DNA of 64,000 nucleotides, from contig CANFOW010000001.1 in NCBI GenBank assembly GCA_947448865.1, positions 4,845 to 68,844 on the forward strand. The letters are read 5' to 3'. Below the pieces are notes generated by a model, which saw only the letters and a list, made by a program, of their open reading frames with translations, was not told the origin of the DNA and ran no database searches. The position numbers and the translations under genes were made by a program. Source of the DNA: Actinomycetota bacterium (lineage in GTDB: Bacteria > Actinomycetota > Actinomycetes > S36-B12 > UBA5976). This document shows, in pieces, positions 1-59,391 of the stretch (the stretch's first letter is position 1; each line of letters opens with the position of its first letter).

Positions 1-664
1 GAAGTGGGAAACCATAGGTTGCCGGAATTGTTTCCATAATGACCGCTGCGACATCGCGACCACGTAACGCGTCTTCCATTGCGACTAAGTCGTTGAATGG
101 AACATGCGGGAATTCTTCGGGACGATCAGACAAAAACAGTTTCGAAAACCGATCATCACCCGTACCGACAGCAAGCCCCGTGTGTCCGTGGTAGGCCTTA
201 ATAATTGACACAATTTTGCGCTTTTGTGTTGCGTGACGTGCAGTCTTCAACGCGATGTCGATTGCTTCGCCACCACCTGAGCCGTACATGACTTTGTTCA
301 AGCCAGCAGGTGCACTCTTGACCAATGCTTCGGCTAGTGCGGTACGAGCTAAGGAAGGAAAGTGGTGGTTTCCGATGTCGAAGTGCTGCATGGCCATCGT
401 GACTGCCTGAACAACTTCGTTGTTGCGATGACCCAAGTTGTAGGTACCACCGTTGAGATGAGCATCAATCAGGCGCTTACCTGACATGTCGTAAATGAAG
501 TATTCCTCGCGACGGTCAATGACCAAAGGCACACCAGAATCTAGCCAAAACTGGGTCTTGCCTGGATTCCAATATTCTTTGGATTTTTCCAGCATCTCTT
601 CTTTAGACGCATACGAAAAAACGCCATAGTCGAACTCAGGCTTTACTGCCGTTGTTTCGTCCAT
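1..664 (-). CDS. Class-III PLP-dependent aminotransferase, N-terminal 221 codons; the 3' end runs off the left edge
   Basis: Absent from the ORF track because it has no in-window stop. Reverse translation from the ATG (complement of 662-664) gives MDETTAVKPEFDYGVF...LNGGTYNLGHRNNEVV...YGSGGGEAIDIALKTARH...AYHGHTG. These strings are typical of ornithine/GABA/putrescine-type aminotransferases. An AGGAGG SD (complement of 671-676) lies 6 nt upstream. Confidence 0.8.
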   Translation of the reverse strand, partial: MDETTAVKPEFDYGVFSYASKEEMLEKSKEYWNPGKTQFWLDSGVPLVIDRREEYFIYDMSGKRLIDAHLNGGTYNLGHRNNEVVQAVTMAMQHFDIGNHHFPSLARTALAEALVKSAPAGLNKVMYGSGGGEAIDIALKTARHATQKRKIVSIIKAYHGHTGLAVGTGDDRFSKLFLSDRPEEFPHVPFNDLVAMEDALRGRDVAAVIMETIPATYGFPL

Positions 665-721
665 CGCGCACCTCCTGCTGACTTACGCACCATGTTGTCA
701 CAAAACATACCAATTGGCTAT

Positions 722-765
722 ACCAAAATCAAGGTTTTGGTTTATTTTTGGTTTAGACCAGAAAA
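722..765. promoter_or_regulatory. Candidate operator: two adjacent inverted repeats built on the ACCAAAA/TTTTGGT half-site, in a divergent promoter region
   Basis: ACCAAAA-TCAAGG-TTTTGGT (722-741) is a perfect 7-bp inverted repeat. TTTTGGT-TTAG-ACCAGAAAA (746-765) is imperfect. Another ACCAAAA copy lies at 819-825 and a further palindrome AACCG-N7-CGGTT at 848-864. No cognate regulator is identified. Confidence 0.3.
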
Positions 766-940
766 TGCCCGATTTCATTGGCTCATTGGTCCGCAGGGAG
801 TGCCGAAACCACAAGACAACCAAAACACCTTCAAGAAATAATCCGAAAACCGTTGTTGTCGGTTGCAGTTTGTGGCAGTGTGCCTAGCAATGTGTGACAC
901 GCATCACCGCTGGGGTGGTGCCAAACGAAAGGGTCGCCAA

Positions 941-2533
941 ATGACGACAGATCACAACGAAGTGGCCTTACCTGGAGATCATCAGGTAAACGTCGGACTT
1001 CGTAAGGGTGCCATCGGCATGGTTTCGGTGCTGTTCATGGCGGTTGCAAACGCAGCGCCTATTACAGCCATGAGCTTCAACGTTCCTGTTGGATTGGGTT
1101 GGGGCAACGGAATTGGAGTTCCAGGTGGATTCCTTTTTGCAACAATCATTTTGACAATCTTCACGGTCGGTTTCGCCGCGATGTCAAAGCACATCACAAC
1201 AACTGGAGCCTTTTACGGATTCATTTCACACGGTCTTGGACAGGTGTGGGGTATGGCAGCCGGTCTGTTGGCAGCGCTTGGCTACGTACTATTTGAAGGC
1301 ACTCTCATTGGTGGCTTCTCGTACTTCGCCTCCGACACAATCAAGAGCATGGCTGGAGTCAGCATCGGCTGGTTGCCAATCGCGATTCTTGGCATGTTGC
1401 TTATTTGGGTGCTTACCTACTTCGACATCACTCTTGCCGCAGCTGTTCTTGGCGTGACCTTGGTTTCTGAAGTTCTCTTGCTTCTTGCATTTGGTATTTC
1501 AGTTCTTATCAAGGGTGGACCTGATGGCTTCATGCCAGCAGACACTGTGTCACCACTTGCAGGTTTCCATAACCTTGAAGCTGGCGCACATGGTTCACAG
1601 GTCGGAGCTGGCGTTGCTGCTCTTGGTATCTTCTTCGCATTCTGGTCATGGATTGGTTACGAAACCACAGCTGTATACGGTGAAGAATCAAAGGATCCAA
1701 AGCACATCGTTCCTCGCGCAACACTGATTGCGGTAATTGGACTTGGCTTGTTCTACACATTCATGTCATGGATGGCCGTTGTTGCCAATGGCGCAAAGAC
1801 CGCAGTCGAAACCGCAGCAGGCGCAGCTCCAGTTGATGTCTGGCTGATTCCAGTCAAGGCTAACCTTGGATCGCTTCCATACGGCTTGTACCGCATTCTG
1901 CTCGTGGTTGGATCTTTCGCTTGTGCGATGGCATTCCACAACGCAGGCTCGCGTTACATCTATGCAATTGGCCGCGAACTTCCATCAAAGAAGCTTCGTG
2001 ACACAATCGGTAGCACTCACCCAACCCACCAGTCACCTGCTGTTGCTTCAACAATTGCAACTGGATTCAACATCGTCATGGTGTTGTTGTTCGCAACAAT
2101 GTCCACAGCGTTTATTACAGATGCATCGGGTAACGCAGTCTCGGAACCAACATTGATTCCTTACCAAGTTATTTACACTGTGCCTTCGTTGGTTGGAACA
2201 GCGTTCATCTTGGTTGTGCAGGTCCTGTGCTCACTAGCAGTGATTGGTTACTTCTGGAAGAAGAAGGTTCACCAAGGTAGTGTCCTTGCCACACTCGTTG
2301 CGCCAATCATTGGTGCAGCTGGCATGGTTTACGTACTGTGGCTCCTGTTCAGCAACCTGGCATTCGCTGCAGGTTTCCAGTCAGGTGCTCTTATGGTCAA
2401 GTACTTGCCATACGAAATCGCTGGTACGTTGCTCATTGGTTTGCTCTACGCCTACTGGGTTAAGGCAAAGCATGCTGACATCTACGCTGAAATCGGACGC
2501 ACTGTTTTGGCAGAAGCGCACGAACGTAAGTAA
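941..2533 (+). CDS. APC-superfamily amino acid/polyamine permease
   Basis: About 12 hydrophobic helices and APC-like composition. I prefer the ATG at 941 (MTTDHNEV, GAAAGGG upstream) over the track's TTG at 863, whose extension is Cys/His/Trp-rich and unprotein-like. Confidence 0.85.
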   Translation: MTTDHNEVALPGDHQVNVGLRKGAIGMVSVLFMAVANAAPITAMSFNVPVGLGWGNGIGVPGGFLFATIILTIFTVGFAAMSKHITTTGAFYGFISHGLGQVWGMAAGLLAALGYVLFEGTLIGGFSYFASDTIKSMAGVSIGWLPIAILGMLLIWVLTYFDITLAAAVLGVTLVSEVLLLLAFGISVLIKGGPDGFMPADTVSPLAGFHNLEAGAHGSQVGAGVAALGIFFAFWSWIGYETTAVYGEESKDPKHIVPRATLIAVIGLGLFYTFMSWMAVVANGAKTAVETAAGAAPVDVWLIPVKANLGSLPYGLYRILLVVGSFACAMAFHNAGSRYIYAIGRELPSKKLRDTIGSTHPTHQSPAVASTIATGFNIVMVLLFATMSTAFITDASGNAVSEPTLIPYQVIYTVPSLVGTAFILVVQVLCSLAVIGYFWKKKVHQGSVLATLVAPIIGAAGMVYVLWLLFSNLAFAAGFQSGALMVKYLPYEIAGTLLIGLLYAYWVKAKHADIYAEIGRTVLAEAHERK

Positions 2534-2545
2534 AAGTTAAACAAC

Positions 2546-2586
2546 CGAATAGGGGTGTGAGGCAATATGTCTCACACCCCTATTCG
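2546..2586 (+). terminator. Perfect 16-bp stem / 9-nt loop hairpin after the permease gene
   Basis: CGAATAGGGGTGTGAG (2546-2561) pairs base for base with CTCACACCCCTATTCG (2571-2586). It starts 13 nt after the stop codon. No clear U-tract follows (ACTTTA), so its terminator strength is uncertain. Confidence 0.5.
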
Positions 2587-2603
2587 ACTTTAGGAGAGAC
2601 ATC

Positions 2604-3641
2604 ATGAGCGACGACATTTGTACTTGGGCACCACAGGAAGATGCTGATCCAGCAACATTTGCTTACACATTTGGTGGACAGCAACCTGTTGTATCGGTAA
2701 AGCCAGGAACGGTTATTGACTCATGGTCGTTTGACTGCTTTGGCGGACGCGTGCGGTCGATATCAGACATGTCCACACAGGTATGCGACCCGCGTTACCT
2801 GAATCCGCAGACTGGACCTTTTTATGTTGAAGGCGCCGAACCTGGCGACACCCTCGCGGTGCACTTTGTGTCAATCGAACCGCGCTACACCTGGGGTGTG
2901 AGTACGACAGTTCCATTCTTTGGGTCGCTCACATCAACCATTACAACGGCAACCCTGCAACAACCATTGGATGAGCGCACGTGGATTTACGAACTAGATC
3001 TTGAGCAGCGCTTGGTGCATTACGAAGCACGCGATTCCAAGTTCACTGCTGCTCTTCCACTAGATCCCATGCATGGAACAGTCGGTGTAGCGCCGGGCTT
3101 AAGCGAAGTGCGCTCGTCACTCACGCCCGGAGATTGGGGCGGCAACATGGACACACCTGAAATGCGAGCTGGCGTGACGTGCTACCTCAACGTGAACGTT
3201 GAAGGCGCACTGTTCTCATTCGGAGATGGTCACGCACGTCAAGGCGAAGGAGAAACATGTGGCGTTGCAGTCGAATGTGCAATGGACACTGTGTTGATTT
3301 TGGATTTGATTAAAAACACCGGTACCCCATGGCCTCGCATTGAATCCGATACTCACATCATGACAACGGGTTCAACTAAACCTCTCGAAGACGCATTTCG
3401 GGTTGCTCATTCTCAAATGGTGCATTGGGTCAGCGATGTTACAGGCCAATCAACTTTGGACAGCTACCAGTTCGTGTCGCAGGTCGCTCAAACACCAGTT
3501 GCAAACGTTGTCGACACGAATTACACAATGGTGGCGAAAGTCGCAAAGGAACATCTGGGAGAGGTCACCATCATGAACGGAATGCATGCGAAAATGCGAG
3601 CACGAGCTGCTTCATGGCGTGCTCAGACTGGGAGAAAGTAA
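2604..3641 (+). CDS. Acetamidase/formamidase-family amidohydrolase
   Basis: Carries the family signature region WGGNMDTPEMRAGVTCYLNVNVEGALFSFGDGHARQGEGETCGVAVECAMD. GGAGAG SD lies upstream of the ATG at 2604. Confidence 0.8.
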   Translation: MSDDICTWAPQEDADPATFAYTFGGQQPVVSVKPGTVIDSWSFDCFGGRVRSISDMSTQVCDPRYLNPQTGPFYVEGAEPGDTLAVHFVSIEPRYTWGVSTTVPFFGSLTSTITTATLQQPLDERTWIYELDLEQRLVHYEARDSKFTAALPLDPMHGTVGVAPGLSEVRSSLTPGDWGGNMDTPEMRAGVTCYLNVNVEGALFSFGDGHARQGEGETCGVAVECAMDTVLILDLIKNTGTPWPRIESDTHIMTTGSTKPLEDAFRVAHSQMVHWVSDVTGQSTLDSYQFVSQVAQTPVANVVDTNYTMVAKVAKEHLGEVTIMNGMHAKMRARAASWRAQTGRK

Positions 3642-4075
3642 TGCCACGTGTTGAACGAATGGAAATTGATCTCGCACTTGCATTAGCAATGATTGAAGCT
3701 GCAACTGCAAAAGCCCGCGAAATAAACGCGCCTATGTCGATTGCCATTCTCGATGCTGGCGCAAACTTACTTGCCTTCCATCGCATGGATGGCGCTGAAC
3801 TTGCTGGTCCAAACTTAGCTATCGACAAGGCGTACACATCAGTTACCAATCGCATCGAGACTGGAGACCTCAAGTCCCGCGTTGCCCCAGACGGTGACTT
3901 GCCTGGCATGTTCGCGAATGGCAACGGACGCTACATTGCATTTGCCGGCGGTATCCCTTGCTGGGATGGCGACCGTGTCGTTGGCGCTATCGGCGTTAGC
4001 GGCGGATCGTGGGACGAAGACCAAGTATGTGCACAAGCAAGTATCACTGTGTTTGAAGCAGCGGCTCGCGCATGA
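3641..4075 (+). CDS. GlcG/DUF336 (PduO C-terminal-domain-like) putative heme/cofactor-binding protein
   Basis: Motifs AILDAGANLLAFHRMDGA, AIDKAYTS and GAIGVSGG..DEDQ. The start ATG shares one base with the upstream stop (TAATG). The track's longer ORF (3425) overlaps the formamidase gene in another frame. Confidence 0.8.
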   Translation: MPRVERMEIDLALALAMIEAATAKAREINAPMSIAILDAGANLLAFHRMDGAELAGPNLAIDKAYTSVTNRIETGDLKSRVAPDGDLPGMFANGNGRYIAFAGGIPCWDGDRVVGAIGVSGGSWDEDQVCAQASITVFEAAARA

Positions 4076-6300
4076 GTGAGGTCATTGGGCGTTTTCGTTT
4101 TATGAACGAACAGCGAGTGAATCTCGATGGGTTCGCTACGCCTGATGCAAATCTTGGACTCATAGCTTTCGATTCACCACACGATCCGCAACCATCACTG
4201 ACATTGCACAACGGCGTTGTCATTGAGATGGATGGGAAAACAAGCGACGACTTTGACACGATTGATCAATTCATTGCTCTGCATGGTTTGGATTTAGCAA
4301 TTGCAGAAGAAGCCATGGCAATCGATAGTCTGCGCTTTGCTCGCGATCTTGTTGACATGAATGTGTCGCGTGCCTCGCTTGTACGTCTGGCTGCTGGAAT
4401 GACTCCCGCAAAGCTTGCTCAGGTGTTGTCACAGCTGAATGCTGCTGAACTCGTTATCGCTATGACGAAGATGCGTGCCCGTAGTACTCCGAGCAACCAA
4501 GCACACGTGACGAATCGTTCCGATGATCCGTTACTACTTGCAGCCGATGCAGCAACTGCGGCGGCCTTTGGCTTCCGTGAAATCGAAACCACAGTTCCTG
4601 TCCTCGGTGATGCGCCATCAAACGCAGTAGCAGTCTCTATAGGTGCGGCAGTCGGTTCGCCAGGAATGCTCGTGCAATGTTCAGTCGAAGAAGCAACAGA
4701 ACTCGCACTGGGTATGCGCGGCTTAGTGTCTTATGCCGAAACCGTGTCACTGTATGGAACCGAGCAAATCTTTGTTGATGGTGATGACACTCCATGGTCC
4801 AAAGCATTTCTGACCAGTGCATATGCATCTCGCGGAATCAAAATGCGCGTGACATCTGGTGGTGGCTCGGAAGCATTAATGGGTGGCTCCGAAAAATGCA
4901 GCATGTTTTATCTCGAGGCACGTTGTGTATCACTGGCTCGCGCAATGGGAGCACAAGGCGTGCAAAACGGTGGCATTGACGCTGCATCTGTTGCTGGGTC
5001 GGTTCCCGGTGGCGTGCGATCACTGATGGCAGAAAATGTCATGGTCATGTTGCGCAATCTTGAAGCCTGTACGGGCAATGATGCCTTGATGAGCGAGTCT
5101 GAAGTACGTCGCACATCGCGCACACATCCAATTTTTATTGCGGGTTCGGATTTTATTTGCAGCGGCTTTGGATCAATTCAGCGCTACGACAACATGTTTG
5201 GTCCGAGTAACTGGAACTCCGAAGACATTGATGACTTTCTGGCGATGCAGCGTGACTGGGGTGTTGATGCGGGATTACGCACTGCAACCGAACGGGATGT
5301 AGCAGCGCTTCGTCGTCGAGCCACCGAAGCAGTCACAGCCGTGTACTCGTGGCTTGGGCTTGGGGATTTTTCTTCGGAATGGGCTGAGCAAGCAATTGAC
5401 GCAGCTGGTTCAAAAGATGTGCCCGATGCGGACCTTATGTTGCCATTGAGTGCTTCTCGCACAATCGTGGATACCGATGTCACAATGCTCGATGTCATCG
5501 CAGCACTGGCTGAAAATGGTTTCGACATTGAAGCAGAACGTTGTCTGGACATGTTGAAGGCACGTGTGCAAGGTGATTACTTGCAAACTGCGGCAATCTT
5601 TGATGAAAGCATGAATGTGTTATCGCTCATCACCGATCCGAACACATACGCAGGACCCGGCACCGGTTACCGACCATCTCCTGAACGCCAAGAAGTTATT
5701 GACACGATTCGTCAACAACAATCCGTCAGTGACATTCGTGCCGAGCAACACTCGTATGCAACGCACAACATTGTGGCAACAGGAACGGCGCACATCAGTC
5801 ATGATCCACGCGATGTTGTGATTGGTGTCTCCCCTGCCACTGGTAAAGACATCTGGCGCACTCTGTCTGGACTCAGCGTTGCTGAGGTCCTGCATGAATT
5901 TATGGCAGGGCTTGAAGAAGAAGGATGTATCGGTCGAATTGTGCGCATTAATGACACTGTCGACTTAGGAATGATTGGACTCACAGCCGCGCGCATGTCT
6001 GGTTCTGGAATCAGCATCGGTCTGCAAGCGAAAGGTACTGCGCTCATCCACCGACGCGATCTTGCACCGCTTGCAAACCTTGAGTTGTATTCGGTTGCAC
6101 CGTCTCTTAATCGAGAGCTATATCGCCAAATGGGAATCAATGCCGGACGCCATGCAAAGGGTGCAACACCCGAACCAATGCGTAACCCGTATTCCGATGA
6201 AGCCATTGAAGCTCGCTATCACACGAAGGTCGTTGGACTTGTCGCTATCGAACGTGATTGCTCAAGCGACACCGCACCAGAAACTATGGAGGTGCGCTAG
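4072..6300 (+). CDS. Coenzyme-B12-dependent diol/glycerol dehydratase, large (alpha) and medium (beta) subunits fused in one 742-aa polypeptide
   Basis: Residues 1 to ~555 are collinear with PduC/GldA as I recall it (SNQAHVTN, FREIETTV, EEATELALGM, GDDTPWSK, MFYLEARC, QGVQNG, TGNDA, GSDFICSG, YDNMFGPSN, GDYLQTAA). The C-terminal ~190 aa match PduD (RDVVIGVSPATG, SGSGISIGLQAKGTALIH, LANLELY). ATGA overlap with the upstream gene. Confidence 0.9.
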   Translation: MSEVIGRFRFMNEQRVNLDGFATPDANLGLIAFDSPHDPQPSLTLHNGVVIEMDGKTSDDFDTIDQFIALHGLDLAIAEEAMAIDSLRFARDLVDMNVSRASLVRLAAGMTPAKLAQVLSQLNAAELVIAMTKMRARSTPSNQAHVTNRSDDPLLLAADAATAAAFGFREIETTVPVLGDAPSNAVAVSIGAAVGSPGMLVQCSVEEATELALGMRGLVSYAETVSLYGTEQIFVDGDDTPWSKAFLTSAYASRGIKMRVTSGGGSEALMGGSEKCSMFYLEARCVSLARAMGAQGVQNGGIDAASVAGSVPGGVRSLMAENVMVMLRNLEACTGNDALMSESEVRRTSRTHPIFIAGSDFICSGFGSIQRYDNMFGPSNWNSEDIDDFLAMQRDWGVDAGLRTATERDVAALRRRATEAVTAVYSWLGLGDFSSEWAEQAIDAAGSKDVPDADLMLPLSASRTIVDTDVTMLDVIAALAENGFDIEAERCLDMLKARVQGDYLQTAAIFDESMNVLSLITDPNTYAGPGTGYRPSPERQEVIDTIRQQQSVSDIRAEQHSYATHNIVATGTAHISHDPRDVVIGVSPATGKDIWRTLSGLSVAEVLHEFMAGLEEEGCIGRIVRINDTVDLGMIGLTAARMSGSGISIGLQAKGTALIHRRDLAPLANLELYSVAPSLNRELYRQMGINAGRHAKGATPEPMRNPYSDEAIEARYHTKVVGLVAIERDCSSDTAPETMEVR

Positions 6301-6659
6301 TGCCACAAGGATTTTCTGGAAAAGATTCCAATGAAGTATCAGTTGATGCAATTCGCAAAGGTGAAGTCACTATTGATGATGTGCGCATTCATCCAGACAC
6401 ACTCGAACATCAGGCAACTGTTGCTGGCGAACATGGGAATGCTCAACTAGCAGCGAACTTCCGACGAGCTGCGGAACTGACTCGCATGACTGATGAATAC
6501 GTGTTGTCTCTGTATGACGCCTTGCGACCAGGCAGATCCACTCATGACACGTTGCTTGAGTACGCCCGCGACCTTGAAGCAGCCGGAGCGCCGTTAAATG
6601 CAGAACTGTTCCGACAAGCAGCTTCTGCCTACCAGCGCCGCGGATTAACTGCACAATAG
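6300..6659 (+). CDS. pduE: Diol/glycerol dehydratase small (gamma) subunit
   Basis: DDVRIHPDTLEHQA...NFRRAAELT...LYDALRPGRST...LEYARDLE matches the PduE core. GTG at 6300 overlaps the upstream TAG (TAGTG), with GGAGG at 6288-6292. The track start at 6258 lies inside the alpha-beta gene. Confidence 0.85.
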   Translation: MPQGFSGKDSNEVSVDAIRKGEVTIDDVRIHPDTLEHQATVAGEHGNAQLAANFRRAAELTRMTDEYVLSLYDALRPGRSTHDTLLEYARDLEAAGAPLNAELFRQAASAYQRRGLTAQ

Positions 6660-6663
6660 CCAT

Positions 6664-8295
6664 ATGACTGTTATCGCCGGTGTCGATATCGGCAACTCCA
6701 CTACGGAAATTGTGCTGAGCATTGACGGTCAACCACGCGCCTGGGATCGACGCCCAACCCGTGGACACAAAGGATCACTGGCAAGTGTGCAAGCAGCTGC
6801 CGCACTGCTGCGAGCCGTCGAACGCACGAGTGGACTAAACGCCGATGTTGTGGTTGTTGCACCATGGCAACCTGTCACAAGTGACACTGCAACTATTCAT
6901 GAAGCACCGCCTTTCACTGGTCGTTTTGCCATCATTGATTGCGCGAGTCACAGTGTCGTCGGAAATTCGCATGCAATCGGTGTGCCTTGGCTCGTAACAG
7001 AGCCTGCAACACCGGAAAGTGATGTCATCGCGCTTGTTCCATCCGCAATGGACTTTGCGACAGCTGCTAATACTTTGACGAGCGCGCACGATAATGGCGT
7101 ACGCATTGTTGGAGTGGCAGTTGAAAACGATGAAGCGGTATTAATTTCGGCGCGAGTTACGTTTAACGCCCCCATTGTGGATCGCATTGCTATTTCAGAC
7201 TTAGCTTCGGCTACTCAGATATTTTTAGAAGTGCGTCCCGCTGGTTCTGGCGTGACTACCGCAACAGATGTGTGGGCACTCAGTTCGGCTTTTAATGCGG
7301 CTGATCAGGAACGGGATTACTTGGCGCACATTGCTCGCTGGGTATACGGGGAACGCGCCGTCGTTCTTGCTGCGTTTCCTGAAAGCAACGCACTTCCCAT
7401 ACAACCTGAAGTCGCTCGCGTCCATACACACGACGGAGGTTGGCAGGAACTTTTTGGCCTTGTCGATAACCAATTGCACGTAAACGCAGTTGATGCGATT
7501 GCGCTTCCTGATCACGGCGAAAACACAGTGAGCGATTTGTGGGCGGTTGACGTCACGGCAAGTTTGCGCAGCCGTGGAATCCGAACCCGTTCTCACTCAC
7601 GAACCATTGCGGTAGCAACGTTGGCCGACTCACCTGCAGTTCCAAGTCAAAACCTTGCAGAAATATTTGGAGTACCCGTTCGAACTGTTCACTCCGAAGC
7701 CTCAGCTGCCGCACAAGGCGCTCGCACTACTCCGGGTATTTCGCAGAATGCAGTCATCATCGACATTGGTGGCGGCACAATCGACTTAATAGGCGATGCT
7801 CCACTGGTCGCAGCAGGTGCGGGCGACTTACTGACAGCCGCTGTGGCATTCGCGATTGATGTGCCACGAGGCGCAGCCGACTGGATTAAGCGCGGACCTG
7901 CCCAACGAGTCGAGGCACCAACTGTTGTCCTCACCGAAGATGGGGCAAAAACCTTTGTTGACCAACCCATCCCAGCACCACTGACTGGCTCGCTGGTTGC
8001 CCAAGGGCCAAGTGGCTTCCTATCTTTTGGAAGTACGTTGTCGCCAGCCGAATGGCGCATCGCTCGGCAAGGTCTCAAGTCATCAGTGCTTGCAGCCAAC
8101 GTGCACAGACTTATTGCGAGCACACAGTTAACCCAACCCGTTGACGTGATTGTTGTTGGTGGGCCAGCTGCCGACGATGAACTCATCCCACTGCTCAGTC
8201 AATTACCGAGTCTTGGCAATGTTGGTCGGGGTAATGTGGCAGGCGTACTAGGTCATCGCTATGCAGTGGCATTTGGTTTGACCCTGAGCATCTGA
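6664..8295 (+). CDS. Diol dehydratase reactivase (reactivating factor) large alpha subunit
   Basis: IAGVDIGNSTTE N-terminus, IIDIGGGTIDLIG, AGAGDLLT, VVGGPAADDE and GRGNVAGVLGHRYAVAFGL are collinear with PduG/DdrA. The protein is 543 aa versus ~610 in enteric homologues. Confidence 0.85.
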   Translation: MTVIAGVDIGNSTTEIVLSIDGQPRAWDRRPTRGHKGSLASVQAAAALLRAVERTSGLNADVVVVAPWQPVTSDTATIHEAPPFTGRFAIIDCASHSVVGNSHAIGVPWLVTEPATPESDVIALVPSAMDFATAANTLTSAHDNGVRIVGVAVENDEAVLISARVTFNAPIVDRIAISDLASATQIFLEVRPAGSGVTTATDVWALSSAFNAADQERDYLAHIARWVYGERAVVLAAFPESNALPIQPEVARVHTHDGGWQELFGLVDNQLHVNAVDAIALPDHGENTVSDLWAVDVTASLRSRGIRTRSHSRTIAVATLADSPAVPSQNLAEIFGVPVRTVHSEASAAAQGARTTPGISQNAVIIDIGGGTIDLIGDAPLVAAGAGDLLTAAVAFAIDVPRGAADWIKRGPAQRVEAPTVVLTEDGAKTFVDQPIPAPLTGSLVAQGPSGFLSFGSTLSPAEWRIARQGLKSSVLAANVHRLIASTQLTQPVDVIVVGGPAADDELIPLLSQLPSLGNVGRGNVAGVLGHRYAVAFGLTLSI

Positions 8296-8306: not shown

Positions 8307-9905
8307 ATGTCGACAACTGTGTGGCGAAATGGATCCGTGTGGATTAGCGCAGGACAAAGCACGCATGCACTTGCAGCTCGCGATGGCGTCATCGTGGCAC
8401 ATGGCGATGATGCACTCGCACTCATCGACCAAGCACATGACGTGATTGACCTAGATGGCAAGACTCTCGGTCCTGGCTTCGGAGATGGCCACGCACACCC
8501 TGTGTTCGGTGGAATTGAAACTTTGTTTGCGCCCGTGCGAGGACATGACACTCTGGAACATTTACTCGCGGCAGTAAAAAAGTGGGCAGACGAGAATCCC
8601 GATGCAGAATGGGTACGCGGCGAAGGGTACGACCCCAGCTTGGCGCCCCGTGGCGAGTTTGACGCGAAGTGGTTAGACGACATCGTCCCAGATCGTCCCG
8701 TTGTTTTACGCGGAATGGATTACCACACAGCATGGGTTAACACTGCGGCGTTAGAGCGAGCAGGAATTACCGGAAGCACGCCGCAACCTATTGATGGCGA
8801 CATCGCAATGCGTCCCGACGGTACTCCGATGGGAACGCTTCGTGAATGGGGTGCGTGGGGAATGGTGTACGACTTACTCCCGCCGCTAAGTAAAGAACAA
8901 CAAATCATTGCAGTTCAAGCGGCCTCTGCTGCCTTTGCTAGTTGCGGTGTGACGTGGGCGCAGGATGCGTGGGTTTCACCTGAGACGTTGGATGCGTGGC
9001 TTGCAGGTGCTCACGCAGGTGTGCTGACATTCCGCGCAAACCTGGCATGGCTTGCAGAACCCGAAGGTAAATGGCGCGATGCATTTCCCACTTTCAGCGA
9101 ATTCAAAGCTTGCGTTGATCGCGAAGCTCCCGAGTTGCTCACAGGTGGCACCATCAAGTTTTTCGCCGACGGTGTACTTGAAGGTGGCACTGCGGCAGTT
9201 CTCGAACCCTACTGTGACTGCCCTACCTCACACGGAATTCCAAACTGGCGTCGAGAAGAGCTCATTGAAGCTGTCGCGGAATGTGTTGCACTCGGTTTCC
9301 AGCCTCACATTCACGCAATCGGTGATGCGGGTGTGCGCAATGCGCTCGACGCATTCGAAAACGCCATTGCAATCCACGGAACTGCTAACAACCCGATCAT
9401 GGCGCACTGCCAACTTGTTGATGAGCAAGACATGGATCGGTATCGCGAACTCGGTGTGATTGCGAACTTCGAACCGTTGTGGGCTCAGTTAGAAGCCGAG
9501 CAAACTGTTTTGACGATCCCACGTTTGGGCCAAGAACGTGCTGACCGGCAATACCCGATTGCTACCCTGTTGCGTTCTGGTGCAAAAGTTTCGTTTGGCT
9601 CCGACTGGCCAGTGACTAGCCCCGTTCCTATGCAAGGAATCGGTATTGCAGTCACGCGTACCACAGATCATGGTGTTGGACCGTGGGTCCCGAGCGAGTG
9701 CCTGACTCTTGATGAAGCGCTCACCGCCTATACATATGGAGTTGCCGTACAAGCAGGTGAAACCCAGGCCTGGGGAGACCTCGCCATTGGCAAACGCGCT
9801 GATGTCGTGTTGTTTGATACTGACATTCATTCCGTTACGCCATTTGATTTGCGTAAGGTTGGCGTTTTAGGCACGTGGCTTGGTGGCAAACGGGTCTTCG
9901 GTTAG
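8307..9905 (+). CDS. YtcJ-like metal-dependent amidohydrolase (Amidohydro_3 type)
   Basis: GFGDGHAHPVFGG metal-binding HxH motif, HIHAIGD and a C-terminal GSDWPV block, with typical length. Confidence 0.75.
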   Translation: MSTTVWRNGSVWISAGQSTHALAARDGVIVAHGDDALALIDQAHDVIDLDGKTLGPGFGDGHAHPVFGGIETLFAPVRGHDTLEHLLAAVKKWADENPDAEWVRGEGYDPSLAPRGEFDAKWLDDIVPDRPVVLRGMDYHTAWVNTAALERAGITGSTPQPIDGDIAMRPDGTPMGTLREWGAWGMVYDLLPPLSKEQQIIAVQAASAAFASCGVTWAQDAWVSPETLDAWLAGAHAGVLTFRANLAWLAEPEGKWRDAFPTFSEFKACVDREAPELLTGGTIKFFADGVLEGGTAAVLEPYCDCPTSHGIPNWRREELIEAVAECVALGFQPHIHAIGDAGVRNALDAFENAIAIHGTANNPIMAHCQLVDEQDMDRYRELGVIANFEPLWAQLEAEQTVLTIPRLGQERADRQYPIATLLRSGAKVSFGSDWPVTSPVPMQGIGIAVTRTTDHGVGPWVPSECLTLDEALTAYTYGVAVQAGETQAWGDLAIGKRADVVLFDTDIHSVTPFDLRKVGVLGTWLGGKRVFG

Positions 9906-9920
9906 ACCAGAATCAGCATT

Positions 9921-10604
9921 GTGGAACTAACTCCAAGCGAACTTGATCGGTTGCTGATTTTCAGTGCAGCACAGCTTGCAGAGTCTCGTCGTGCTCGAGG
10001 TACGAAACTCAATCACCCTGAAGCGACTGCACTGATAGCGAACGCTGTTATCGAAGCAGCTCGTGATGGTGCCACACATGCGCAAGCAATCCACGCGGGT
10101 GTGAATGCGGTATCACCGGATGAATTACTTGACGGAATCGACTCGATGTTGTCTGGCATCAGTGTCGAAGCAGTGTTCAATGATGGACGGCGTTTAGTCG
10201 TGATTGATTTCCCCAGTAATTCCGATTCTTCGACACCGGGTTCGGTTACTCGCCTAGTTCAACAATCAGAATTGCAGTCAGATGATCTTGTGACATTAGA
10301 TGTGCACAACAATTCCACAGTCGACATTTCCGTGACTACACACATGCACTTTTTTGAAGTGAACCCGCGACTTATTTTTGATCGTGAAGCAAGTTACGGT
10401 CGCCATCTTTTTATTCCTGCAGGTGAGCATGTTGATTTCCCGGCAGGTCAAACAACGAGCGTGACTCTTGTTCCCATAACAGGCAACCGAATCATTATCG
10501 GGTTCGCAGGCCTTGTCGATGGTCCGCTTGATGCACCTGGTGCTCGCGAAGAAGCTATGCGTCGAGCCCGTGAACTTGGTTATCTCTCAGGAGACAAGTC
10601 ATGA
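9921..10604 (+). CDS. ureAB: Urease gamma-beta fusion subunit homologue
   Basis: MELTPSELDRLLIFSAAQLAESRRARGTKLNHPEA matches the UreA N-terminus. HMHFFEVNPRLIFDR and GNRIIIGFAGLVDG match UreB. GTG start. Confidence 0.85.
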   Translation: MELTPSELDRLLIFSAAQLAESRRARGTKLNHPEATALIANAVIEAARDGATHAQAIHAGVNAVSPDELLDGIDSMLSGISVEAVFNDGRRLVVIDFPSNSDSSTPGSVTRLVQQSELQSDDLVTLDVHNNSTVDISVTTHMHFFEVNPRLIFDREASYGRHLFIPAGEHVDFPAGQTTSVTLVPITGNRIIIGFAGLVDGPLDAPGAREEAMRRARELGYLSGDKS

Positions 10605-12271
10605 GTGAGCAGGACATTGCAGTTCATGGTGCACGTGCCGGCGACTTTGTGCGTCTTGGCGATACGCATCTTGTTGTCCGAGTTGAAGCAGATGATCGCC
10701 AACGCGGGAATGAACTTCAAATTGGTTTTGGCAAGAACGCTCGTGACGGCATTGGCATGCAATCTATTCGCCCAAGTAAATCGTGTGATGTTGTCATTAC
10801 CAACGTGCTCGTGATTGATGCAGTACTTGGAATTCGAGTCACAAGTATCGGCATTAACGAAGGTCGAATTAGCGCCATTGGACGTAGCGGAAACCCAGAC
10901 ACGATGGACGACATCGATGTCGTAGTCGGAAGTGGCACCGTCATCATCCCGGGCGAGGGACTCATCGCAACAGCGGGCGGAATTGATTCGCATGTTCATG
11001 CAATGGCACCTCGGGTCTGCGACGCAGCGCTCTCGAGCGGTGTGACAACGCTGATTGCCCAGGAGTTTGGGCCTTTTTGGGGCGTCGGAGTTGGGTCCAA
11101 ATGGGCACTTGGGCATGGGCATAAACAATTTGCAGCCTGGCCATTAAACGTCGGCATCCTCGGTCGAGGAGCTGGTTCAACAACTGATCCGCTTTATGAA
11201 GCACTCGAGGGTGGTGTCTGCGGATTCAAAATCCACGAAGACACTGGCGCGCATCCTCGCACGCTTGATACGACGTTGAGTTTCGCAGACGAACATGACG
11301 TCGCGGTGGCATTACATACTGATGGTCTTAACGAGATGATGCACGTTGAAGACACCATTGCTGCGATTGCTGGTCGTGCTGTGCATGCATATCACGTTGA
11401 AGGTTGTGGTGGAGGCCATGCGCCGGATGTTCTTCGACTCGCAGGACACAACAACATTTTGGCTAGTTCAACAAATCCGACATTAGCTTTCGGTATTAAT
11501 GCGGCTGACGAACATGTGGCGATGATTATTTCTGCGCATGGAATGAATCCTGAACTCCCTAGTGACATCGAGCTTGCGCGTCGTCGAGTGCGCAATGCCA
11601 CGATGGCGGCTGAAAATAAATTGCATGACATCGGCGTGATTCCTGTGACTTCCTCTGATGCACTCGGCATGGGTCGCGCAGATGACACATGGCGTAAGAC
11701 TTTTGCGATGGCCAGCATGTTTGCCGATCGCGCAATCCTCGATGGAACTGTTGCGCCTGATGATGTTGTTATCGAAAACGAGCGCGTACTTCGACACATT
11801 GCAAAAATTACAATCAACCCCGCTCTGGTACATGGCCTGAGCCACGAAGTAGGTTCACTGCAAGTCGGATTGCTCGCTGACATTGTGTTGTGGCCGTATC
11901 GCTCATTCGCCAGTAAGCCCAACATGGTCATCAAGTCTGGAATTCCGGCATGGGGTGTTGTTGGCGATCCAGGATCAACAGTTGCCAATGCACAACCTTT
12001 AACTATTAGCGCGCAGTTCGGCGCATTTGGAGCAAGCGCTGCTGAACTCGGCGTTCACTTCACTAACGCTATGAGCACCACGACTGTCGAAGGTAGACGC
12101 AGCGTGCCAGTCAAGAACACTCGCACAGTTCGCGGCACAGACATGGTGCGCCACGGAGTCCTTGGCACAATCGATGTCGACGTCCACGATTACACCGTGC
12201 GCTTCAATGGCGACATCGTCACATGTAACCCACTCAGCGAATCTCCACTAACCCGAAAGTATGTGTTGTAA
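10601..12271 (+). CDS. ureC: Urease alpha-subunit homologue; metal ligands conserved, active-site flap divergent
   Basis: GGIDSHVH (HxH), GFKIHEDTG (carbamylated-Lys position), ALHTDGLNE, HAYHVEGCGGGHAPD, SSTNPT and TSSDALGMGR (Asp ligand). The canonical MVCHHL flap motif reads IISAHGM. ATGA overlap with ureAB. Confidence 0.85.
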   Translation: MSEQDIAVHGARAGDFVRLGDTHLVVRVEADDRQRGNELQIGFGKNARDGIGMQSIRPSKSCDVVITNVLVIDAVLGIRVTSIGINEGRISAIGRSGNPDTMDDIDVVVGSGTVIIPGEGLIATAGGIDSHVHAMAPRVCDAALSSGVTTLIAQEFGPFWGVGVGSKWALGHGHKQFAAWPLNVGILGRGAGSTTDPLYEALEGGVCGFKIHEDTGAHPRTLDTTLSFADEHDVAVALHTDGLNEMMHVEDTIAAIAGRAVHAYHVEGCGGGHAPDVLRLAGHNNILASSTNPTLAFGINAADEHVAMIISAHGMNPELPSDIELARRRVRNATMAAENKLHDIGVIPVTSSDALGMGRADDTWRKTFAMASMFADRAILDGTVAPDDVVIENERVLRHIAKITINPALVHGLSHEVGSLQVGLLADIVLWPYRSFASKPNMVIKSGIPAWGVVGDPGSTVANAQPLTISAQFGAFGASAAELGVHFTNAMSTTTVEGRRSVPVKNTRTVRGTDMVRHGVLGTIDVDVHDYTVRFNGDIVTCNPLSESPLTRKYVL

Positions 12272-13267
12272 ATGTCCTATCGTGTACACGCTCAAGGAAC
12301 TGGTGCTCAACGCGGCGCCCAACTCGGCGAACAGTTCATTGAGGCACTGCCTCGAGCGTGGGATCGCTGGGTTGCGCACTTTGAAACTAACAACGTTGAT
12401 CCGCATGATTTAGCTGACCGACTCACTCGAGTAGGTGCCTGGGACACTGCCCGCAAGCACCTTCCCGACCTCGTGGACGAACTTGAGGCAATGGCGCACG
12501 CAGCCGGAATGCCGTGGCACAAGGTGGCCGCACTGTCGATGCTCGATGAGTCGTGGGCGTTAACGGGTGGAATGGCGTGTACCTCTATTGCAATCACACG
12601 TGACGGTGTTCGCGTTGCGGGACAAAACATGGATTTACCCGCCTGGACTGACACCATGCAAACCGTTCTCAATGTGAAAGATGCCAACGGACTCGGGGTG
12701 GTTGCAGCCACTTACCCTGGCTCGCTTGCGACATGTGGAGCGAACTCACAAGGTGTGGTTGTCATAGTTAATGCACTCGACCTGGCAACGGACATGAACG
12801 GTATGCCAGTGGATTTCGTAACCCGAGGTGCTTTGCATCATGACACAGCCGCCGATGCCATTGCCTTTATTCGCAGCATTCCGAATGCTGTCGGCCAGAC
12901 CTACACCGTGCTCGATGCACACGACCTATTTATGGTCGAAGCTGCGGCCGATGGCGTCATCGACGTACCGTTACACGAGGTTGTTTCAGTGCACACCAAC
13001 CACGCATTCACACGCGACCATGACATTTCAGAAAGTTCAATCACCCGCCTGACCGCAATTGAATCAACTCGAAGCTCGTTAACGTCTAGAGAGGCTCTCG
13101 AAGCATCTCTGACAAACAAAGAATCTGGCGTATGCCAAGTCCTGGGTCGATTCACTGCGGACATGTACTCGTTTATGGGCGTTCTTGGCGATTCACTTGA
13201 GCGTCGGGTCTGGGTAAATGTGTCACCTGCCACAGGTGGGCTATTCGAGGAAGTTTCATTTCTCTAA
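12272..13267 (+). CDS. Peptidase C45 / acyl-CoA:6-aminopenicillanic-acid acyltransferase-like Ntn hydrolase
   Basis: GTGAQRGAQLGEQF N-terminus and a candidate nucleophile Cys103 in GGMACTSI. This is the position of the autoproteolytic Cys in the family as I recall it. The gene starts directly after the ureC stop. Confidence 0.65.
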   Translation: MSYRVHAQGTGAQRGAQLGEQFIEALPRAWDRWVAHFETNNVDPHDLADRLTRVGAWDTARKHLPDLVDELEAMAHAAGMPWHKVAALSMLDESWALTGGMACTSIAITRDGVRVAGQNMDLPAWTDTMQTVLNVKDANGLGVVAATYPGSLATCGANSQGVVVIVNALDLATDMNGMPVDFVTRGALHHDTAADAIAFIRSIPNAVGQTYTVLDAHDLFMVEAAADGVIDVPLHEVVSVHTNHAFTRDHDISESSITRLTAIESTRSSLTSREALEASLTNKESGVCQVLGRFTADMYSFMGVLGDSLERRVWVNVSPATGGLFEEVSFL

Positions 13268-13284
13268 GGTCATAGGCTCTAGCC

Positions 13285-14535
13285 ATGGCAAATACTGATG
13301 TTCAGGTCACCGTCATTGGTGGCGGCGCTGTTGGTCGAGCAACTGCATGGCAGCTCGCAAAAGAAGGAATCAAGGTTCGAGTCGTTGACTCCGGTGAACC
13401 GCGTTTTGGAACTTCAATGGCAAATGCCGGTTGGGTTGCTCCAAGTCACATCATTCCTTTTGCGGCCCCAGGCATGGTGTCGATGGGTGTTAAAGAGCTT
13501 GTAAAGCGTTCAGGTGCCTTCGGGGTGTCACCTGCTGCGGGACCATCGCTGGCATCATGGACTTTGAAATTTATGCGTGCCTGCACGATGGAACACGTTG
13601 ATCGCAATGCGCCCGCACTTAACGAGTTGCTCCAACGCAGCATGGGCCTTTTTGATGATCTCATTGTGAACCATGGTTTGCGACGCACCGAAAAAGCGTT
13701 GTACTACATTTTTTCCTCAGATCGTGCCGAGGAACTTGCTCATGAAGAACATGACCTTTTTACAGATCATGGTGTTGCAACAAAACTTGTTGACGTTGAA
13801 TCTGCCCGCAGCGATCTTCCTATCCTTAAAGACAGTGTTAAAGCAGTACTCGAACTCACAACGGACTACGGAATTGATCCACGTCGCTTTGTGAACTTAC
13901 TCGGCGAACTCAACACCGGTTCGGGCGTGGAATACCGCACTGGCGAAACTGTTAAGAATGTTGTTCATCGTGCTGACTTAGTTCATGTCACAACGGATAA
14001 AGATTCCTGGACAAGTGATTACGTTGTTCTTGCTGCTGGCACATGGTCGGGTGAAATTGCGAAAATGGTTGGCTCGTCCTTGAGCATCATTGCAGCTAAG
14101 GGCCATTCTGTGACTCTGCCCAACATGACCAACATGCCCGATCGCCCCATGATGCTTGCCGAGCAACGTTTAGCGACTAACCCCGAAGCAAACGGCTACC
14201 GCATGAGTACTGGCTTTGCTTTAACGTCAAATAACGATCGCTCAATTAATCACAAAGCAATCGACAAGTTGTACGCAACCGCGAGTCAGGTTCTTCATTT
14301 GCCTGAGCGTGCGGCAAACATTGAGCCGTGGACCGGACTACGACCAGCCAGTCCCGATGGCCTGCCTTACATTGGACCGCTGGCCAACGCCCCACGAGTG
14401 ATTACCGCAACTGGTCACGGCATGATCGGCAACATGTTGGCACTTGGCACTGGCGCCGTAGTAGCCGACATGGTGCAAGAACGTCCGATATCAGGAGAAA
14501 TGCTTAAGTTCTCACCTTCTCGACCAAGTGCATAG
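13285..14535 (+). CDS. FAD-dependent oxidoreductase (DAO / D-amino-acid dehydrogenase-like)
   Basis: N-terminal Rossmann motif VTVIGGGAVGRATAWQLAKEGIKVRVVD and a C-terminal GHGMIG motif. Confidence 0.75.
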   Translation: MANTDVQVTVIGGGAVGRATAWQLAKEGIKVRVVDSGEPRFGTSMANAGWVAPSHIIPFAAPGMVSMGVKELVKRSGAFGVSPAAGPSLASWTLKFMRACTMEHVDRNAPALNELLQRSMGLFDDLIVNHGLRRTEKALYYIFSSDRAEELAHEEHDLFTDHGVATKLVDVESARSDLPILKDSVKAVLELTTDYGIDPRRFVNLLGELNTGSGVEYRTGETVKNVVHRADLVHVTTDKDSWTSDYVVLAAGTWSGEIAKMVGSSLSIIAAKGHSVTLPNMTNMPDRPMMLAEQRLATNPEANGYRMSTGFALTSNNDRSINHKAIDKLYATASQVLHLPERAANIEPWTGLRPASPDGLPYIGPLANAPRVITATGHGMIGNMLALGTGAVVADMVQERPISGEMLKFSPSRPSA

Positions 14536-14564
14536 GGCATTATTGCTTTATCGCCCCACACCTG

Positions 14565-15650
14565 ATGCAAAGGATTTCTGTGACTAATTCGTTCCTGAAC
14601 ATTGCCAACGTCAGCAAAGCATTTACGACCCCCGAGGGTGGCACAGTCCACGCTCTTGATGATGTTTCGCTAGACATTCGAGAAGGCGAATTCTTCGTCA
14701 TGCTTGGCCCATCAGGCTGCGGTAAGACAACGCTGCTTCGTTCTATTGCTGGACTTGAATACCCAGACAGCGGTGTCATCACACTTGATGGCCAGCGCAT
14801 TGATGATTTGCCTGCATACAGCCGACCAGTTAACACTGTGTTCCAGTCATACGCACTGTTTCCACACATGACTGTTGGGCAGAACATCGCGTTTGGTTTG
14901 GAAATGGAAGGCATAAATAAAACCGAAACTGCCAAGCGAGTTTCCGATGCTCTTGATCAGGTATCACTTTCTGGATTAGACAAACGTAAGCCCAGCCAAC
15001 TTTCTGGTGGTCAGCAACAACGCGTTGCGCTGGCTCGTGCATTAGCTAAGCAGCCGAAAGTTCTGCTACTCGACGAGCCACTGAGTGCATTGGATTTGAA
15101 ACTTCGTCGTGGCATGCAAATTGAACTCAAGCGACTTCAGCAACAAACCGGAATCACATTCGTTTTCGTCACCCATGATCAAGAAGAAGCAATGTCGATG
15201 GGTGATCGCATTGCGGTATTTAAAGATGGAAAAATTGTTCAACTTGATACACCGCAAGAAATTTATCGTCGCCCAGTAAATAGTTTCGTCGCAGACTTCA
15301 TCGGTGAAACAAACTTGCTCGATGGAATTGCTACTGCTGATGGCGTACAAGTTCCTGGTGGCGGATTCATCGCCCGGTCCGTTATCGCATCCGATTGTGT
15401 AGTTCCCGCGTCTGGCTCAGTCACGATTGCGATTCGACCTGAAGACTTGAAGATAAGTGATGGCTCAGGTTCATTAAAGGGAATTGTCCGCGATGTGATC
15501 TTTACTGGTGAAACGGTGCGAGTACACATTGACCTTGGAACCACTGAAGTGGTCGCCCACTTACCGTCTTACGGAGTTCGCGTTCCTGACCGCGGTGAAA
15601 CCGTAAGCTTCTCGCCACTAGATCAGTCCGCTCGCACGGTGGCCTCATGA
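14565..15650 (+). CDS. potA: PotA-type ABC transporter ATPase (spermidine/putrescine-import family)
   Basis: Walker A GPSGCGKTT, signature LSGGQQQRVALARAL, Walker B LLLDEPLSALD and a C-terminal TOBE-like region. An alternative GTG start at 14580 has a better SD (AAGGA). Confidence 0.85.
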   Translation: MQRISVTNSFLNIANVSKAFTTPEGGTVHALDDVSLDIREGEFFVMLGPSGCGKTTLLRSIAGLEYPDSGVITLDGQRIDDLPAYSRPVNTVFQSYALFPHMTVGQNIAFGLEMEGINKTETAKRVSDALDQVSLSGLDKRKPSQLSGGQQQRVALARALAKQPKVLLLDEPLSALDLKLRRGMQIELKRLQQQTGITFVFVTHDQEEAMSMGDRIAVFKDGKIVQLDTPQEIYRRPVNSFVADFIGETNLLDGIATADGVQVPGGGFIARSVIASDCVVPASGSVTIAIRPEDLKISDGSGSLKGIVRDVIFTGETVRVHIDLGTTEVVAHLPSYGVRVPDRGETVSFSPLDQSARTVAS

Positions 15651-17349: not shown

Positions 17350-17352
17350 ACA

Positions 17353-18477: not shown

Positions 18478-18486
18478 TTTCGATAC

Positions 18487-18526
18487 AAAAGTGGAGCCTC
18501 ACCTCAGGGTGGGGCTCCACTTTTTT
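18487..18526 (+). terminator. Rho-independent terminator
   Basis: AAAAGTGGAGCCTCACC-TCA-GGGTGGGGCTCCAC is a GC-rich stem with one mismatch, followed by TTTTTT. It starts 10 nt after the potD stop. Confidence 0.75.
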
Positions 18527-18560
18527 GCCCTCAAGGCACACTGTGCTCCATAATCCTTAA

Positions 18561-39284: not shown

Positions 39285-39377
39285 AGCCCTATTGTTCCAG
39301 CCTTGGTGATGCCAACCGCACCTCTGTGTCGTAGCCTTGTCCTAGCGGTTAGCCGCAACCAATCTTCGGAGGACACT

Positions 39378-59305: not shown

Positions 59306-59391
59306 GAAAAATGCCTCCATACAACGCCCACCTCGTCGTGTGCGTACAGGGTCAGCCTACCGATTGGCCGTCCGTAGGCAAAGATAGGAAG

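Follow-up and report, generated by a model that had tools for sequence, protein, structure and literature searches.

A putative fused B12-dependent diol dehydratase with an alpha-only reactivase in an RMM2-type microcompartment locus of a freshwater planktonic actinobacterium

Results

Gene content of the locus

The DNA studied here is a 64-kb stretch of contig CANFOW010000001.1 from an actinobacterial genome; the stretch as a whole is called the window, and all coordinates are window positions. Near its left end it carries genes predicted to encode a B12-dependent diol/glycerol dehydratase whose alpha and beta subunits form one polypeptide, the small subunit of this enzyme, and the alpha subunit of a reactivase. 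The locus is of the RMM2 type, and its microcompartment shell genes are situated just beyond the left edge of the window. Pfam and NCBIfam scans revealed on the + strand a tightly packed gene run extending from 863 to ~19600. The features of the dehydratase region, including the gene across the divergent intergenic region, are as follows.

2-664, - strand: class-III aminotransferase-fold gene, N-terminal 221 codons, cut by the window edge (Pfam Aminotran_3, E 3e-24)
665-940: divergent intergenic region between the RMM operon and the permease/dehydratase operon, with two HutC/GntR-operator-like palindromes
941-2533, + strand: APC-family permease, amino acid/ethanolamine-permease-like, 530 aa from the ATG at 941 (Pfam AA_permease)
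2604-3641, + strand: acetamidase/formamidase-family amidase (Pfam FmdA_AmdA, E 5e-23)
3641-4075, + strand: GlcG/HbpS-like (DUF336) protein (Pfam HbpS-like, E 1e-34)
4072-6300, + strand: fused alpha+beta dehydratase of the B12-dependent diol/glycerol family, 742 aa (Pfam and NCBIfam)
6300-6659, + strand: small (gamma) subunit, 119 aa (Pfam Dehydratase_SU, E 3e-33)
6664-8295, + strand: reactivase alpha, actin/Hsp70-like ATPase plus swiveling domain, 543 aa (Pfam DDR_swiveling, DDR)

The last four genes had been recognized in a first-pass annotation made from the letters of the window, and all of them were found by Pfam. Overlapping stop and start signals occur at three junctions: TAATG at 3639-3643 (amidase stop, GlcG start), ATGA at 4072-4075 (GlcG end, dehydratase start) and TAGTG at 6298-6302 (dehydratase stop, gamma start). 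Because of these overlaps, the genes from the amidase through the small subunit are considered translationally coupled, and the ATGA overlap bears out the coupling of GlcG to the dehydratase that had been noted earlier. The likely start of gamma is the GTG at 6300, which overlaps the TAG stop and is preceded by GGAGG 7 nt upstream; the same start was used in the gene call of locus L083. The gamma protein does not have the ~55-residue N-terminal extension of PduE (the NCBIfam alignment covers profile positions 58-168 of 174).

For comparison, a set of 80 related actinobacterial loci was used. Neighbourhood counts refer to 41 loci in which the dehydratase gene is flanked on either side by 8 kb or more; features were scored there within 10 kb. 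The permease, the first gene of the dehydratase-side operon, showed weak NCBIfam matches to amino-acid and ethanolamine permeases and adjoined the cluster in 31 of the 41 loci; the amidase gene was found in 20. GlcG/DUF336 is the fold family of the PduO C-terminal domain. In phmmer searches the GlcG-like protein matched PduO (E 1e-16) and a haloarchaeal 'heme-binding protein' encoded beside unfused dehydratase genes (E 1e-30). A GlcG/DUF336 gene beside a B12 dehydratase is thus common and nothing special, and the weight given to it in the first-pass annotation was not warranted.

The adjoining operon is of the RMM type

The aminotransferase-fold gene at 2-664 runs off the left edge of the window and is the first gene of a divergent RMM operon. 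The encoded fragment shares 99.6% protein identity with locus L001, and the DNA is ~80% identical to the full-length gene in L008, L010, L012 and others. By analogy with RMM loci, the gene product may be an amino-alcohol-phosphate phospho-lyase. The genes hidden by the window edge could be seen on an ENA contig (L084), which was retrieved by exact look-up of the permease protein; the 530-aa permease is identical to a gene call on this contig. L084 is 99.2% identical to window positions 1-3595, without gaps, and reaches 7.4 kb further upstream. There it carries, all on the - strand, the complete aminotransferase-fold gene and genes for an aldehyde dehydrogenase, a BMC-domain protein and a 153-aa unknown protein, followed by BMC-P (EutN), BMC-H, tandem BMC-T, an APH-family kinase, an SDR and a GntR/UTRA regulator. 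The following L084 products matched proteins of known structure from the M. smegmatis RMM system.

Kinase: 6ef6 (E 4e-96)
SDR: 3pk0, 6ci8, 6ci9 (E ~1e-98)
BMC-T: 5suh, MSM0271 (E 7e-94)
BMC-H: 5l38, MSM0272 (E 4e-40)

The RMM system of Mycobacterium smegmatis is thought to convert aminoacetone/1-amino-2-propanol to propionaldehyde inside a protein shell. In the description of Axen et al. 2014 (PMC4207490), an RMM2 locus consists of the RMM gene set with diol dehydratase genes on the opposite strand. The present locus fits this type, because the RMM gene set adjoins opposite-strand diol dehydratase genes: kinase, class-III aminotransferase-fold lyase, SDR, aldehyde dehydrogenase and GntR regulator are present on L084, the permease is present as well, and the dehydratase genes diverge from them across 665-940. 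The shell genes are found on L084 and in 33 of the 41 full-flank relatives, not inside the window. The same divergent layout is repeated in L008, L010, L012, L014, L015 and L020. The locus shares the enzymes, BMC-H/T/P, GntR, permease and opposite-strand dehydratase with the RMM2 loci of Axen et al. 2014 and Sutter et al. 2021, and differs from them in its host, which belongs to a freshwater planktonic Nanopelagicales-related lineage and is not a soil mycobacterium, and in a lineage-specific amidohydrolase/urease-like/C45/DAO/ABC block appended downstream. It is a new member of a known locus type. A Pdu metabolosome can be set aside, as no PduL, PduO-adenosyltransferase or PduA/N matches were found in the window and the adjacent operon is of the RMM type.

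These results change the picture of a 'minimal, shell-less' module given in the first-pass annotation: a complete RMM operon stands back to back with the dehydratase operon and is cut off by the window edge. Searches of all six frames of the window revealed no BMC shell, PduL or PduO-type adenosyltransferase gene. The earlier statement that phosphotransacylase and adenosyltransferase genes are missing from the window was therefore correct, and so was that on the shell genes as far as the 64 kb are concerned. As a property of the locus, the reported absence of shell and aldehyde dehydrogenase genes does not hold, since L084 carries both.

Two palindromes in the divergent intergenic region, TTGGCTATACCA (714-725) and TGGTTTAGACCA (749-760), resemble HutC/GntR-type operators in sequence and in their inverted repeats. 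They recur in L084 and L001 and are poorly conserved in more distant loci, and a conserved GntR operator that co-regulates both operons is at best weakly suggested by them.

The starts of several independent metagenome-assembled contigs (L001, L002 and L004) fall in or shortly after the aminotransferase-fold gene, no more than a few hundred bases away from window position 1. Assemblies or bins therefore tend to separate the shell operon from the dehydratase operon. No repeat that would explain breaks inside the aminotransferase gene was found within the window.

The alpha-beta fusion

The 742-aa open reading frame (ORF) matched in one frame both Pfam Dehydratase_LU (residues 7-552, E 3e-232) and Dehydratase_MU (residues 602-700, E 2e-23), and its NCBIfam large-subunit subfamily score was 831 against a cut-off of 788. 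By these LU and MU domains and by the SU domain of the adjoining gene product, the protein is assigned to the B12-dependent diol/glycerol dehydratase family. It could be aligned over its full length with 1iwp, with 1dio and with the engineered alpha-beta fusions of Klebsiella (9vii and relatives). The beta part corresponds to residues 52-200 of a PduD-type free beta chain, and a linker stands in for the N-terminal ~50 residues of the free beta subunit.

A homologue search that covered 5.8 billion proteins returned thousands of homologues of ~744 aa; the best 120 were all 733-759 aa long and had both Pfam domains. The thousands of homologues of the same length, together with literature reports, rule out that the fusion is a frameshift artefact, so the joining of a large and a medium subunit in one frame, as first annotated, is genuine. 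It is not novel, as had been implied: natural alpha-beta fusions have been reported since Liu et al. 2010 in Mycobacterium and Mesorhizobium (as cited in PMC7674605 and PMC4777399), and natural alpha-beta fused glycerol dehydratases are described for Mycobacterium smegmatis, Mesorhizobium and Hyphomicrobium (Liu et al. 2010; Martins-Pinheiro et al. 2016). The annotation of M. smegmatis contains three fused-type 'large subunit' genes and zero medium subunit genes. These enzymes have the same fusion architecture with a separate small subunit. Where the fused-enzyme literature treats these genera it reports no reactivation-factor genes in them, whereas the present subfamily has a divergent reactivase alpha in 38 of 41 loci.

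The canonical enzymes PduCDE, DhaB123 and PddABC (1dio, 1iwp) are ~50-55% identical to the window enzyme and share with it the three subunit domains, the Ca ligands and the catalytic His143/Glu170/Asp335 (active-site residues are given in PduC numbering). In the window enzyme, in contrast, alpha and beta are one polypeptide, the N-terminus of the free beta subunit and the N-terminal extension of PduE are absent, and the PduL, PduO and PduQ context is lacking.

Active site and substrate pocket

Gln141, His143, Glu170, Glu221, Gln296, Asp335, Ser362 and Phe374 were intact in the window protein and invariant in 80 out of 80 relatives. Among them, we take Gln141, Glu170, Glu221, Gln296 and Ser362 to be the Ca2+/substrate ligands, and His143 and Asp335 to be catalytic. 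The earlier statement that the catalytic and calcium ligands are intact thus survived proper alignment, except that the motif EEATELALG had been mistaken for a ligand context; the context of Glu221 is SYAETVS, which is likewise intact.

The part of the pocket that contacts the C3 substituent is different. All 80 relatives have Gly299/Asp301/Ala336/Leu337, in contrast to Ser/Ser/Gln/Thr in every canonical enzyme examined, PduCDE, DhaB123 and PddABC included; Ser301 and Gln336 are found in both bacterial and archaeal canonical enzymes. The canonical C3 pocket, in which Ser301 and Gln336 fit 1,2-propanediol or glycerol, is therefore not present in the window enzyme. The Ser301Ala and Gln336Ala mutants of Yamanishi et al. 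2012 reportedly resist inactivation by glycerol and accept longer 1,2-diols. According to the structural account in a review (PMC7674605), the C3-OH of glycerol points towards Ser301 in the inactivation-prone conformation of canonical enzymes. The Asp301/Ala336 pocket is family-wide and under-described.

Asp301 was also considered as a possible hallmark of all fused enzymes. This was ruled out, as the fused clusters P0242, P0247 and P0286 keep Ser301, though with Ala336. The P0242-type cluster is located in an unrelated context, without reactivase and without kinase/lyase genes, and the other fused subfamilies that keep Ser301 likewise sit in other contexts. An Agrobacterium homologue (see below) has Gly299 and Asp301. 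Since the Ser301-type fused clusters have other contexts, Asp301 marks the subfamily that is tied to the amino-alcohol module. This makes a reading with an amino-substituted substrate conceivable, and, as judged from the residues, the native substrate may be a diol whose C3 substituent is polar or cationic.

A reactivase alpha without a beta gene nearby

The 543-aa product of the gene following gamma has the ATPase and the swiveling domain of the DdrAB/PduGH/GdrAB-type reactivase alpha subunits, to which it is assigned by sequence and by model. Its matches among PDB sequences were 2d0o_A and 1nbw_A (DdrA, GdrA), and an AlphaFold (AF2) model built on 26 homologues (pLDDT 86) matched 2d0o in Foldseek with E 6e-40 and a TM-score of 0.67. 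The nucleotide-binding motifs DIGNSTTE, DIGGGTID and VGGP were invariant in the 26 homologues. With the DdrAB, GdrAB and PduGH systems (2d0o, 1nbw) it thus shares the alpha architecture, the conserved phosphate-binding motifs and the position of the alpha gene directly after the small dehydratase subunit gene. In contrast to them, the window system has no beta gene, and its alpha is shorter than PduG by ~65 residues, with deletions mainly within PduG 271-326. A canonical near-invariant segment (PduG ~66-97, 'NEA.PVIGDVAMETITETIITESTMIGH') is not conserved, and the NCBIfam score of 166 bits is under the equivalog cut-off of 400. The reactivase evolves much faster than the dehydratase: across Nanopelagicales-like lineages identity is ~50% where the dehydratase has ~82%.

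A beta subunit (DdrB/PduH), as required for an alpha2beta2 reactivase, was sought with a hidden Markov model (HMM) made from five seeds (DdrB/PduH of Salmonella, Ilyobacter, Cetobacterium and two haloarchaea) in stop-to-stop pieces of at least 30 aa from all frames. In all six frames of the window, in L084 and in the 80 loci, within ~10 kb of the dehydratase, the only match was the fused dehydratase beta domain; this is an absence at the level of the locus. The HMM was sensitive enough to detect every dehydratase beta subunit or domain (E 1e-6 to 1e-13). A ddrB hidden in small or overlapping frames was also ruled out, because phmmer with two seeds, run on the same pieces, matched the fused beta domain only, as did the five-seed HMM. 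The first-pass finding of no reactivase beta gene is in this way extended from the window to the family. GlcG, if regarded as a stand-in for the beta subunit, was present in only 25 of 41 loci, compared with 38 for reactivase alpha. The pairing of an alpha-only reactivase with a fused dehydratase is family-wide and under-described.

Linkage to the kinase/lyase module

The dehydratase gene was accompanied within 10 kb by other genes of the RMM set in the following numbers of loci.

Kinase and/or aminotransferase-fold gene: 40/41
Shell genes: 33/41
Aldehyde dehydrogenase: 33/41

The linkage persists in three gene orders (divergent, co-directional and convergent); in the co-directional order the dehydratase genes come straight after the RMM GntR gene. 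It also persists without a shell in L046, L047, L050, L057 and L075. A further case is found on the Agrobacterium cucumeris plasmid pO132a (L090, 5811-16831), where a fused Asp301 dehydratase of 49% identity is encoded, together with its small subunit, in an operon with a sugar-type ABC transporter, followed by SDRs, a phosphotransferase, a class-III aminotransferase-fold gene and a GntR regulator. With neither shell genes nor a reactivase, this operon represents the same enzyme set in a shell-less proteobacterial form. Linkage in 40 of 41 loci, in three gene orders and in two phyla argues against chance adjacency and for a functional tie between the dehydratase and the kinase/lyase module.

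Host and other genes of the window

The nearest genomes are freshwater metagenome-assembled genomes (MAGs) labelled Actinomycetes or Candidatus Nanopelagicales, in agreement with the plankton setting presumed in the first-pass annotation: the host is a Nanopelagicales-related actinobacterium of the freshwater plankton. Kineosporia, Nocardioides, Microbispora, Cryptosporangium and Actinoplanes are among the more distant relatives. Two MAGs labelled Gammaproteobacteria (L017, L018) have a dehydratase ~80% identical to the actinobacterial one and the same reactivase, a pattern that is probably the result of mis-binning or recent transfer. A heliorhodopsin gene at 38215-38973 (Pfam E 7e-98) fits a freshwater actinobacterial origin.

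The gene run continues beyond the reactivase with the following features.

8307-14535, + strand: Amidohydro_3, urease gamma/beta-like, urease alpha-like, C45 hydrolase and DAO-type flavoenzyme genes (Pfam/NCBIfam)
to 19625, + strand: Pot-like ABC transporter, with a PotA-like ATPase with TOBE, two permeases and two solute-binding proteins (Pfam/NCBIfam)

This block (8307-19625) follows the reactivase only in the Nanopelagicales-like subgroup L001-L016 and is absent from the other loci; it probably represents a nitrogen-compound module specific to this lineage, which does not belong to the dehydratase system. The urease gamma/beta-fusion-like and alpha-like genes at 9921-12271 lie between the Amidohydro_3 and the C45 hydrolase genes. 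By eye, the urease-like nickel-site motifs DSHVH, FKIHED, ALHTD, YHVEG and SSDALGMG are intact, the alpha-like protein scores 543, under the NCBIfam equivalog cut-off of 680, and the Pfam scans of the window revealed no ureDEFG accessory genes. The product could be a urease-like amidohydrolase with another substrate.

Other observations concern more distant parts of the window. The 385-aa ORF at 22887-24044 has an unusual combination of flavin-reductase-like and LysR substrate-binding domains with no helix-turn-helix, and a nickel superoxide dismutase gene is located at 39303-39773. On the - strand, a 623-aa ORF without Pfam match (52029-53900) and a 1612-aa ORF (54482-59320) each adjoin a response-regulator gene.

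Discussion

Taking together the gene content, the fusion, the conservation of residues, the lack of a reactivase beta gene near the cluster and the tight synteny with RMM genes, we consider it probable that the region forms, in a freshwater planktonic actinobacterium, the dehydratase arm of a microcompartment locus of the RMM2 type. The RMM operon occupies the left side, for the most part beyond the window edge; to the right, divergently, permease, amidase, GlcG, fused dehydratase, gamma and reactivase alpha follow each other. The dehydratase would be an adenosylcobalamin- and Ca-dependent vicinal-diol dehydratase that uses the standard radical mechanism, and its aldehyde product, propionaldehyde if the substrate is 1,2-propanediol, would feed the RMM aldehyde dehydrogenase. 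After suicide inactivation, the alpha-only reactivase would use ATP to eject the damaged cobalamin. In the simplest working model, reactivase alpha would dock directly on the tethered beta domain, so that no reactivase beta 'placeholder' would be needed.

Several facts weigh against this explanation or parts of it. The beta subunit, the adenosyltransferase or B12 uptake genes could be encoded elsewhere, and in a Klebsiella plasmid locus, too, the alpha gene has no annotated beta gene beside it. Neither the fused protein nor the reactivase shows an evident encapsulation peptide, and the same holds for gamma, which is devoid of the N-terminal extension of PduE. The shell-less variants tie the dehydratase to the kinase/lyase enzymes, not necessarily to a compartment. 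Asp301/Ala336 point to a native substrate that may be other than 1,2-propanediol, and the RMM set lacks an alcohol dehydrogenase and a phosphotransacylase with which a plain propanediol route could balance its cofactors.

The pocket residues lead to an alternative that we regard as unlikely, though worth setting out. The Gly299/Asp301/Ala336 subfamily could be specific not for propanediol or glycerol but for a vicinal diol that bears an amino (cationic) group further along than C2, such as 3-amino-1,2-propanediol or a longer amino-diol. The ammonium group would be bound by Asp301, and the product would pass on to the kinase/phospho-lyase/SDR route, so that the dehydratase and the RMM enzymes would make up one linear pathway. 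Residue 301, which faces the C3-OH of glycerol (PMC7674605), is Asp in 80 of 80 relatives, and the change of Gln336 to Ala enlarges the pocket. Asp301 is common to the Agrobacterium homologue, whose operon includes an SDR, a phosphotransferase and an aminotransferase-fold gene, while the fused paralogues of the P0242 type that keep Ser301 lie in an unrelated context without kinase/lyase. The adjoining permease is amino-acid/ethanolamine-like and the amidase is translationally coupled. However, no such amino-diol is an established abundant natural metabolite, and with normal regiochemistry the product would be 3-aminopropanal, a compound with no obvious entry into the kinase/lyase route. A hydrogen bond to a hydroxyl, or the exclusion of glycerol, would be equally conceivable roles of Asp301.

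It is rather improbable that the dehydratase is an independent cytosolic enzyme acting on 1,2-propanediol, glycerol or ethylene glycol and a mere neighbour of the RMM locus. This possibility is preferred by Axen et al. 2014 in their treatment of RMM2 loci (PMC4207490); it agrees with the lack of a recognized encapsulation peptide, and a general aldehyde dehydrogenase is encoded elsewhere in the window (24760-26247). In contrast, linkage to kinase/lyase in 40 of 41 loci, in three gene orders and in two phyla, and the position of the dehydratase genes directly after the RMM GntR gene in the co-directional loci, speak against it; because this linkage is tight and crosses phyla, it counts against the published view of an RMM2 compartment that takes no account of the neighbouring dehydratase. 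A truly minimal shell-less B12 module with a new reactivation mechanism, in a genome without beta, shell and aldehyde enzymes, is hardly credible: none of these genes is inside the 64-kb window and the alpha-only reactivase is family-wide, but the cut aminotransferase-fold gene and the RMM operon on the 99.2%-identical L084 refute the shell-less part, and shell, aldehyde dehydrogenase, kinase and lyase genes lie immediately upstream there and in syntenic relatives.

A 'beta-subunit swap' hypothesis for the reactivation of B12 enzymes has been outlined (PMC7674605). It cannot run here as drawn, because the reactivase has no beta and that of the dehydratase is tethered. With a tethered beta domain and a reactivase without beta, the family constitutes a natural experiment, and a working alpha-only reactivase would favour the version of the swap in which the dehydratase's own beta engages reactivase alpha. 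Asp301 and Ala336, at positions contacting the C3 substituent, are relevant to the engineering of glycerol and diol dehydratases.

A bolder proposal, which we put forward only tentatively and do not expect to be correct, is that the Asp301/Ala336 dehydratases are a distinct class for cationic vicinal diols in an unrecognized amino-diol pathway, with the reactivase beta dispensable once the dehydratase beta is tethered. If this were true, an amino-diol pathway, with or without a shell, would be widespread in Actinomycetota and present in Rhizobiaceae, and the alpha-only reactivase would discriminate between the two versions of the swap model.

Pfam scans that covered the larger ORFs of the window revealed no genes for cobalamin synthesis (cob), transport (btu) or adenosyltransferase. 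As far as the strains described in PMC12817590 are concerned, cultivated Nanopelagicales do not have de novo B12 synthesis, and a few have a cobinamide salvage route. Since cultivated relatives do not make B12 de novo, this pathway would depend on external corrinoids, and the ecological remark of the first-pass annotation on a B12 enzyme in streamlined plankton appears reasonable by analogy.

The present analysis replaces the 'shell-less minimal B12 module' by an RMM2-type locus and illustrates that a window edge can hide half of a divergent locus. Our literature searches returned nothing linking Nanopelagicales to microcompartments or diol dehydratase; the locus places an RMM2-type microcompartment, together with a predicted adenosylcobalamin enzyme, in an abundant freshwater actinobacterial lineage.

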